From NCBI GenBank assembly GCA_965178125.1, contig OZ237745.1:496001-560000 (forward strand): 64,000 bases of DNA, in the 5' to 3' direction. The position numbers and the translations under genes are program-made. Below are positions 55,832 through 57,985 of this stretch, piece after piece. The notes beneath the pieces are model-generated. The model did not search any database, was not told the DNA's origin, and saw only the letters and a list, made by a program, of their open reading frames with translations. The stretch's first letter is position 1. The number at the start of each line of letters is the position of its first letter. This DNA comes from Bilabrum cf. latius. Lineage: Eukaryota.

Positions 55832-57985
55832 TCAATCCAACTCCTCCCGTCGACCGAGGTCGGCATCGTAGCCCCCATCCACATCCACGGCAACCCGCTG
55901 GCCAATCCCGTCCAAGTCATCCTCATCGTCCCCCGCAACACCACCCCCAGCTCCCCCCATAGCAGCACCATCCGCCCCCATCACATCTTCTGGTGCAGGC
56001 ACCTCGTAGTACGGCACGGGGAGATCTCTCTGCAGCCAAGGATGTTTGAGAGCCTCCGCAGCCGTGGGTCTCTTCAGGGGGTCCACCTGCAGCAGGGCAC
56101 GCACGAACGACAAAAAGTCCTCGTCGTCTGTCTGCAGCTGGTGCTCAAGGGACGCCTCTTGCGCGTGCAGGATGGCCACCACGTCCTCGTCCTCGTGATC
56201 CTCCGCCGGCAGACGCTCGTACACCTGCCCATCCGCCGTGAAGAAGTCGTGCGTGTTCCTGCCCTGCCGCAGCATGTGCCTGGGCATGGGCCCCAGCAGG
56301 GCCTGCATCCTAGCCAGGATCGTGGGCATGGCATCGTTCACGAACAGCACCCTACCCGTCAGCATCTCGCAAAGAATGCACCCTAGGCTCCACACGTCGA
56401 TCTTTGGACCGTAGGGGAGCCCCAGCACGACCTCCGGAGCCCGGTAGCTCCGTGACTAGATGTACGTCGTAAGGTGGTCCGTGATGAAGCAGCTGCTGCC
56501 AAAATCGATCACCTTGACATTGCACTTCGAGTAGGACGCGATCAGGATGTTCTCAGGCTTGAGATCCGAGTGCAAGATGCCCAGGCTGTGGATGAACGCG
56601 AGTGCCTGAAGGCACTGCTTGGCAACCCGCTGGATCCTAGGCATGGTGAAGTAGTTGGGCTGCCGGAGCGTCCTGAGGTACTTCTGGAACTCGTACAGGT
56701 TGTCTTTGAGGAGCTCCGTGACCAGGAACAGGTGCTCCTTGTAGTAGAAAAAGTCGTGCAGCCTGAGCAGCCGCTGGTCGGCGGTTGCGGCGATGTAGCG
56801 GGGCACGGGAGGCAGCCCCGGGATGGACCCCTGGCCCATCTGGCTCTCGAGCCTGGCCGCTTCCATCCTCGCGTTGATGTAGTTGAGGAGCTTCACCTCG
56901 TCTATGCTCTGGTCCACGTACTCTTTGTTGTTCTTCACCACCTTGAGGCACACCTGGCGGCCCGTCGCGAGATCGTCGCACCCCAAAGCGCTGCTGAAGG
57001 CCGCGCTGCCGAGCGTGTCCTTGACGACGTACCTCCCGGCGATCACCTGCCCCGGCAGAGCCGAGAAATCCTTCTCGTCCTCGAACCCAGTGCGACCCGC
57101 CTCGTACACGACCTTGAGTGCCATGGCGGCGAACTTGCACGGAGCACCCGACTCGCTCACGTCTGCTCGCGTGGGCCACAGCTGCCTCCACCTCGCCGCG
57201 CTGGCCTCCATGCCGCCGACCGCGGCCTCGGCAGCCGCCCTGGCCTCCAGGATGGAGGGGTCTGACCCCAACAGGGGGTCGCCCAGCTCGTCCAACCCGT
57301 CCAGGGGCGGCAGATCCCCGGCCCCCGCGCCTTGCTCCGCCGCCAAGGAACGTTCCCTTTCGAACCTCAGGGCGAGGAGCTGCTCCTTGTGCGACTGCAG
57401 CTCGGCCGCCCTCGCTTCCCTCTCCTGGAACTATTCGGGGGACAGGTCCTCCGCATCTACCTGCACGATGAACTCCTCGTCCTCCTCATCGTCGTCGTCC
57501 TCCAGCTTGGGCCGGCGGGGGCTCTCCGTGTCGCTGCCCACGTCGTCCGCCGCGTGCTCCTCGGCTGCCGCCGACGCTTCGACGGGAGGTAGCGGCGGCG
57601 CGGCCCTCGAAGGGAGCTGCGCGGCCGCTGTTTCTACTTCAGCATTCAAGTGACTATCTACCGTAAGAAGCGATTCGGCGGGCAGGGCTCTTCGCACGAT
57701 GGACCAGCTCTGCGAGTCCAGCCCATGCCCAGTTCCGCGAAGCGAGCTGCTCTGCGACAGCAGCCTGGCCAGCGCGCTGCAAAGCTCCGCGTACCCGACT
57801 TCATCCTGCTGCTTACTTTCGACGGCGATGCCTCGAGTGGGCAGCGATATTCCAGCCGCCTTGTCCACGCGAGATACGGCAGACCGAACCTCAGACAAAC
57901 TCTCGTTGAGCGCCCGCAAGGATTCCATCACCTTTCGGGACACGCTCGATGTGGCATCAGACGCACTTGCTCCTGATGATGCCAT
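55832..57985 (-). CDS. DYRK-family kinase (DYRKP/Ppk15-like); 2 in-frame TAG
   Basis: [57 protein letters not shown] and IDVWSLGCIL. TAG at 57431 and 56456. Ends with TGA. Confidence 0.92.

Follow-up and report, generated by a model that had tools for sequence, protein, structure and literature searches.

Introduction

Reading of the stop codon UAG alone as glutamine (Gln) is recorded in PMC11687900 for one fornicate, Iotanema spirale, and among ciliates for Protocruzia tuzeti and two phyllopharyngean lineages. The same source lists both UAA and UAG (together UAR) as Gln codons in ciliates, ulvophycean green algae, Hexamita, Streblomastix and Amoeboaphelidium, and names no stramenopile among the reassigned lineages known in 2024. 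Codes in which UAR or UAG specifies glutamate (Glu) are reported in peritrich ciliates, in Blastocrithidia and in an oligohymenophorean ciliate with UAG = Glu. Here we describe a 64,000-nucleotide stretch of the Bilabrum cf. latius assembly GCA_965178125.1 (contig OZ237745.1, positions 496,001 to 560,000; hereafter the window, to which all coordinates refer), in which a DYRK-type protein kinase gene is interrupted, under the standard code, by an in-frame TAG at a Gln position of the activation segment. The corresponding residue of DYRK1A, Gln323, lies two residues after the autophosphorylated Tyr321 and beside the substrate P+1 residue, and is termed "catalytically important" in PMC3677093. 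We are highly confident that the nuclear code of this organism reads UAG as Gln and that the kinase TAG is an ordinary Gln codon.

Results

An in-frame TAG in the activation segment of a DYRK-type kinase

The kinase gene and the elements relevant to its reading are the following.

55835..57985, minus strand: coding sequence (CDS) model of the DYRK-type kinase, 717 codons, ATG at 57983-57985, two in-frame TAGs
56456..56458, minus strand: TAG under study, codon 510 of the ATG-started model and codon 536 of the stop-to-stop frame
56420..56475, minus strand: activation-segment and P+1 stretch containing the TAG at 56456-56458, with the span given in the preliminary description
57431..57433, minus strand: second in-frame TAG of the kinase gene, DLSPE-TAG-FQERE, within an acidic N-terminal part of low conservation
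55832..55834, minus strand: TGA, the first stop other than TAG in the kinase frame

The triplet at 56456-56458 is CTA on the plus strand and TAG on the coding strand, a strand that the preliminary description had not given. The standard code splits the frame here into two adjacent stop-to-stop open reading frames (ORFs), at 56456..57430 (324 residues) and 55832..56455 (207 residues). The ATG start is backed by the ortholog on a metagenome contig, L001, which has the same Met directly after a stop. The protein matches the Pfam Pkinase domain (6.1e-50), and its closest solved kinases are DYRK2 (2.8e-52) and DYRK3 (5.2e-50), followed by CLK1 (1.4e-43), with CLK, SRPK and HIPK kinases all scoring lower. 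Human DYRK2 aligns at the TAG site with the segment YTYIQSRFYRAPEV, placing Gln opposite the TAG (E = 2.8e-52), and the alignment continues past the TAG to query residue 363.

The kinase displays the DFGSSC and Y-I-Q-S-R-x-Y-R-A-P-E motifs, provided that TAG is read as Gln, and the TAG codon follows the activation-loop Tyr by two residues, as Gln323 follows Tyr321 in DYRK1A. In contrast with the YxY of DYRK2 and DYRK1A, the window kinase has TTY, the first Tyr being replaced by Thr; Ser or Thr also dominates this position (-4 from the TAG) in 120 aligned homologs. The N-lobe differs from those of DYRK2 and DYRK1A as well, in carrying an insert with a Pro-rich loop. A stretch preceding the catalytic domain gives a separate, weak match to DYRK2 (i-Evalue 0.0017) and is a candidate for the DYRK-homology (DH) box. 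The protein presumably resembles the subgroup called plant-type DYRK (DYRKP).

For the analysis of conservation, the kinase part was searched with X at the TAG, which kept the choice of residue out of the query, and column statistics were taken from the best 120 of 1846 matches with E<=1e-20, aligned by MAFFT. Gln occupies the TAG column in 120/120 homologs, and the flanking residues Y(-2), S(+1), R(+2), Y(+4) and the R, A, P and E that follow are likewise each present in all 120. Columns with at least 95% Gln make up only 3 of the 337 well-aligned query positions; the window codons at these three are CAG, CAG and TAG, and the chance of a randomly placed codon falling on such a column is below 1%. 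The ortholog of Cafeteria roenbergensis (P0002) has the same activation-segment motif with Gln at the site, a 99% identical kinase (P0001) has Gln, and L001 has CAG. The TAG at 56456-56458 is thus predicted from these alignments to encode the invariant activation-segment Gln, equivalent to Gln323 of DYRK1A.

The preliminary description had placed the TAG at the conserved activation-segment Gln of DYRK kinases, and the readthrough alignment to DYRK homologs bears this out: close homologs with a different residue were looked for and none was found among P0001, L001, Cafeteria and the 120 aligned sequences. Its assignment of Gln also stands, but its premise that one column is enough to fix the amino acid does not; that identification needs the TAG/CAG exchanges, poly-Gln contexts and internal repeats described below.

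TAG as a sense codon throughout the window

The window has a G+C content (GC) of 0.53-0.69 per 2 kb and a eukaryotic organization of long genes with few, short GT..AG introns. Codons were counted in 15 CDS models totalling 16,085 codons, with TAG read through, and gave the following numbers of stop triplets.

TAG: 87 in frame; 118 in other frame 1; 79 in other frame 2
TAA: 0 in frame; 23 in other frame 1; 52 in other frame 2
TGA: 0 in frame; 264 in other frame 1; 261 in other frame 2

In-frame TAG is not avoided, while TAA and TGA are excluded from the coding frames. Since the kinase TAG is one of 87 in-frame TAGs, the true subject is the genetic code of the organism rather than a single gene. 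At least one TAG occurs in 13 of the 15 models and, beside 544 CAG and 105 CAA, TAG would account for ~12% of all Gln codons. Long, Pfam-supported frames with TAG as sense include those for an acyl-CoA synthetase, an armadillo (ARM)-repeat kinase, alanyl-tRNA synthetase, a voltage-gated channel, two ankyrin paralogs, a glycosyltransferase with a Gln-rich tail, a DUF4455/DUF4456 protein, Utp21, a DJ-1-like protein, a sulfatase and an RRM protein. The Pfam Utp21 domain extends to residue 1525 of 1529, beyond a TAG at residue 1495. The ankyrin paralogs, at 18900-20852 and 21771-23138 on the plus strand, are 44% identical over 513 aligned columns, and an in-frame TAG occupies one and the same alignment column in each (GRLLDG-TAG-LVSPL; GRLTSG-TAG-LVSPL), beyond which the sequence is conserved; as TAG stands in both copies, this comparison gives no residue identity.

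If TAA were used in proportion to CAA (CAA:CAG 105:544, against 87 TAG), ~17 in-frame TAA would be expected. None is observed here or in L001, so the code is of the UAG-only and not the UAR type. Four in-frame TAA emerge when the frames are read from stop to stop, one upstream of the Met chosen for the ARM-repeat kinase and one upstream of the 5' end of the transcript-like contig of Utp21. The other two form the sole candidate for a TAA terminator in the window, at the end of a class IV aminotransferase-like gene:

43314..43319, minus strand: TAA-TAA, followed by 4 codons and TGA

TGA terminates 16/17 models. UGA is the usual terminator, whereas UAA does not serve as sense and probably terminates genes only rarely. 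In these respects the code is closer to NCBI table 15, with UAG alone reassigned to Gln, than to table 6.

A code in which UAG is ambiguous was also considered, with UAG ending some genes, or being read by a near-cognate tRNA-Gln in place of a dedicated CUA tRNA while release at UAG is weak, so that the kinase would be full-length only part of the time. Context-dependent stop/sense codes are reported from karyorelict ciliates and Blastocrithidia. The models themselves read TAG through and could miss a terminal TAG, a point of relevance, for instance, to the glycosyltransferase TAG located 23 codons before the TGA. Against this, TAG is found 87 times in frame compared with 118 and 79 times out of frame, without selection against it, while TAA and TGA are absent; its share of Gln codons is ~12% and extends to a catalytically important residue; and homology runs past late TAGs, as in Utp21 and the ankyrin paralogs. 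An ambiguous UAG is on balance improbable.

The reading of UAG as a Gln codon has points against it too. None of the 17 models ends in TAG, a count that is partly circular since the models were built by reading TAG through. The tRNA scan of the window, L001 and L002 (a Cafeteria-like metagenome contig) gave 0 genes. Two further points concern the contigs taken as transcripts: the run search listed no RNA holder and the runs from which they come carry only the guess "RNA?", one of them (X6) being marked "probably DNA" in read placement, and the listed contigs end ~150 nt short of the kinase TGA. An Rfam scan of the window also returned 0 matches.

Contigs from other studies and selection on the kinase

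Contigs of the kinase gene come from three studies. DNA contigs of the probable source (X1) show 0 differences on the gene, TAG included, and 0 differences were also found in contigs from two other studies, X5 (55982-58179) and X6 (55998-58179). Five GT..AG joints (50522/50611, 50659/50746, 53427/53622, 53753/53906 and 55337/55584) are present in X5 and X6 and in none of the X1 contigs, and the X5 and X6 contigs are gene-sized units. Because of these joints without X1 counterpart and the gene-sized contigs, X5 and X6 are taken as assembled transcripts; if they derive from RNA, the mRNA keeps UAG. CAG in cDNA, which the preliminary description had named as the outcome that would count against it, was looked for, and both transcript-like contigs show TAG.

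The joints correspond to introns of 86-246 nt, at 50523-50610 and 50660-50745 on the plus strand and at 53428-53621, 53754-53905 and 55338-55583 on the minus strand. These introns, seen in X5 and X6 only, fall in the DJ-1-like, sulfatase and RRM genes; the majority of the remaining genes seem to lack introns.

The X5 and X6 contigs end at 55982 and 55998, leaving the last ~50 kinase codons (55835-55981) outside the listed transcript-like contigs; the reason may lie in an undetected intron, in a 3' end ahead of the TGA or in a gap of the assembly. By bin depth, the interval 55700-55998 (minus strand) has nearly no other contig, and the tail is G-rich and of low complexity.

Relative to L001, the 222 codons that precede the TAG have a ratio of nonsynonymous to synonymous substitution rates (dN/dS) of 0.031, and the 98 codons that follow it have one of 0.041. 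Purifying selection is thus equal on both sides of the TAG, and the part that follows is therefore translated. This agrees with the earlier statement that the sequence downstream is intact.

These data bear on whether the TAG is a lesion or an artefact: it might mark a nonsense allele or a pseudogene, stem from faulty assembly, or be a genomic TAG that editing turns into CAG in the mRNA. Such an origin would account for a frame that the standard code breaks at a residue of the catalytic domain. It is contradicted by the 87 in-frame TAGs spread over 13/15 models, by the exact match of contigs of three studies, two of them spliced, by the low dN/dS after the TAG, and by the in-frame TAGs that the L001 ortholog carries of its own, and we regard it as extremely improbable.

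Long-range "joints" of 1.5-17 kb, with sides of 20-30 letters and a very high summed depth, connect 46139-46327, 60889-61253 and 62745-63225 in contigs of all four runs. They probably reflect shared low-complexity repeats, coding for acidic or Ala/Gly stretches, rather than rearrangements.

Residue identity from relatives of the window genes

Gene order on the L001 contig (5584 nt, GC 0.60) is that of the window: the ortholog of an unnamed 1809-codon gene (58349-63775) is followed by the kinase on one strand. Identity between the two DYRK proteins is 80% over their whole length and rises to 91% within the kinase part, with a synonymous divergence (dS) >1. L001 contains 14 in-frame TAG and 0 TAA in 1705 codons, and its TAG positions differ from those of the window. 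TAA is frequent in the intergenic spacer of L001 and absent from both of its coding frames. At four of the DYRK TAGs of L001 the window has CAG which, with the CAG of L001 opposite the activation-segment TAG, makes all five DYRK Gln pairs TAG versus CAG. When pairs from both genes were filtered for gap-free context and at least 6 of 12 flanking identities, 11 of the 20 pairs of TAG with a residue were kept, and the partner in these was Gln in 7 and Glu, Lys, Asp and Arg in one each. In the 9 pairs dropped, the partner was Glu twice, A, D, G, Q, H and S once each, and a gap once.

The glycosyltransferase gene provides further comparisons at close range.

26426..26452, minus strand: two glycosyltransferase TAGs, residues 1678 and 1686, TQQQ-TAG-QQTGLVQ-TAG-AQ
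27953..27958, minus strand: TAG-TAG pair in a glycosyltransferase poly-Gln run, VQQ-TAG-TAG-QQQ

An 88% identical protein, P0124, reads TSGHAQQQQQQTGLVQQAQ opposite residues 1678 and 1686, with Gln at both TAGs in runs of Gln without Glu, and its ORF ends exactly at a third window TAG. The ORF of a second relative, P0121 (89% identical), ends within the TAG-TAG pair. From these positions, the ends of both proteins would be the result of standard-code gene calling at TAGs that those relatives have kept.

The glycosyltransferase carries 27 TAGs, most of which lie in a tail of >1300 residues rich in Gln, Ala, Gly and Ser and without a Pfam match (25844-27960, minus strand).

Residue identity from poly-Gln runs and internal repeats

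Several window TAGs are embedded in poly-Gln runs. A Gln neighbour was found at 15/81 TAGs, compared with 7.5% for non-Gln codons (Fisher p ~0.001). This excess is carried by the Gln-rich glycosyltransferase: without that gene the count is 5/54, which is not significant and detracts from the Gln assignment. Internal repeats were available in the ARM-repeat kinase, which has 15 armadillo repeats.

5097..5099, minus strand: TAG of an armadillo repeat, in a column with Gln in 11/14 other repeats
4794..4796, minus strand: TAG of an armadillo repeat, in a column with Glu in 14/14 other repeats

A further TAG of this gene falls in a column with Gln in 9/14 other repeats. Between the kinase-like domain and the armadillo repeats, the gene (4197-9149, minus strand) encodes a run of ~300 residues of GAGAGF- or GAGAGAGF-like units, at ~6880-7840.

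The Glu column at 4794..4796 is one of six sites at which a TAG faces Glu or Asp, and these speak for a code in which TAG is sense but specifies Glu, like UAR in peritrich ciliates and Blastocrithidia, or another residue, the kinase then having Glu at the Gln site. The second kinase TAG (57431-57433, TAG-211) faces Glu in P0001 and GAG in L001; another such site lies in the unnamed gene; opposite the glycosyltransferase TAGs at residues 108 and 435, relatives of 39-52% identity, Cafeteria included, show E, D and D; and three solved structures have E, E and D at the acyl-CoA synthetase TAG (residue 458), where the column varies and is uninformative. GAG is, in addition, one base away from TAG. 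A Glu codon is opposed, however, by the DYRK column, which is Gln in every one of the 120 homologs, by the well-aligned close pairs, with seven Gln and one Glu among 11, by the two Gln at TAGs of P0124 and by the two armadillo TAGs in Gln columns. It would also require five Gln-to-Glu changes through TAG/CAG transitions inside a kinase domain that is 91% identical. Gln/Glu is the commonest exchange of Gln, and scattered acidic partners are expected under a Gln code; judged from the alignments, those found here read as ordinary Gln/Glu exchange at variable sites. A reading as Glu or another residue is accordingly rated very improbable. The Gln assignment follows because the DYRK column, the TAG/CAG exchanges between relatives, the poly-Gln contexts and the internal repeats concur.

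Lineage and comparison with known code variants

The best named match of the kinase is Cafeteria roenbergensis (60%), followed by haptophyte, cryptophyte and green algal proteins at 52-53%, and Cafeteria is the only named match of the glycosyltransferase (50%). Named matches of alanyl-tRNA synthetase are all 43-57% identical and do not discriminate; in a FastTree analysis of 23 named sequences, out of 120, plus that of the window, the window is sister to Cafeteria with a weak Shimodaira-Hasegawa-like support of 0.714. The Cafeteria kinase P0002 and that of L002 are 60-61% identical to the window kinase in the kinase part and share its activation-segment motif. P0002 is one continuous annotated protein, and the ortholog frame of L002 (GC 0.72, 61% identical) is free of TAG, for which reasons the reassignment is not common to Cafeteria, the nearest named relative. 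Of the other metagenome loci (L003 to L019), three were read: L003 (GC 0.41) has no in-frame TAG; in L004, an AT-rich contig, TAA as well as TAG occurs in frame; and in L005, which has introns, no TAG is visible.

The window is similar to lineages with a table 15-type code in having TAG at Gln positions, 0 in-frame TAA and TGA as terminator. It differs from them in lineage, with Cafeteria as nearest named relative, in its GC-rich genome and in the predominance of TGA, which ends 16/17 models, while its use of TAA as terminator rests on one candidate gene. With table 6 codes it shares a stop read as Gln, exchange with CAG and enrichment in Gln-rich tracts, but it departs from them in TAA, which is absent from all 16,085 window codons and from the 1705 of L001. 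With Glu codes it has in common some TAG sites opposite Glu or Asp, as judged from distant homologs and from one internal repeat column, but it differs in the Gln found in close-range partners and at the invariant DYRK column.

No nuclear code change in a stramenopile or bicosoecid was found in the full-text literature, a search that left subscription journals and supplements outside its scope, and the runs date from 2025. The kind of phenomenon is known and the lineage appears to be new. Tentatively, and with a little less than even confidence, we propose that this is the first nuclear stop reassignment in a stramenopile, with UAG alone reassigned to Gln, UAA kept from coding frames and UGA ending nearly all genes, in a GC-rich, Cafeteria-related clade, Cafeteria itself retaining the standard code. 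The clade would comprise at least the window organism, a strain ~93-94% identical in DNA and the divergent metagenomic relative (dS >1).

By analogy with other reassigned codes, UAG could be decoded by a tRNA-Gln with anticodon CUA, one mutation from CUG, and the release factor eRF1 may have lost its response to UAG but still respond to UGA and probably to UAA.

A side observation concerns the otherwise unannotated interval 23.2-25.8 kb, where an ORF fragment (24988-25530, minus strand) matches alpha-L-fucosidase over profile positions 86-161 of 345 only, which suggests that it is part of a multi-exon gene.

Implications for annotation and code evolution

Annotation of this genome under the standard code would truncate or split most long genes, because 13/15 models carry TAG, and databases already hold such fragments, P0121 and P0124 stopping within or at TAG positions of the window ortholog. 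The DYRK site offers a handy single diagnostic, with an invariant and catalytically important residue within one predicted tryptic peptide. If true, an independent change of UAG alone to Gln would be informative for the evolution of genetic codes; the flagellates concerned are GC-rich and poor in introns, and their nearest named relative has the standard code. The change would add a case of UAG uncoupled from UAA and would fit poorly with explanations of stop-codon loss devised for AT-rich genomes, since here the A-rich stop is rare and it is the G-containing stop that has been captured.

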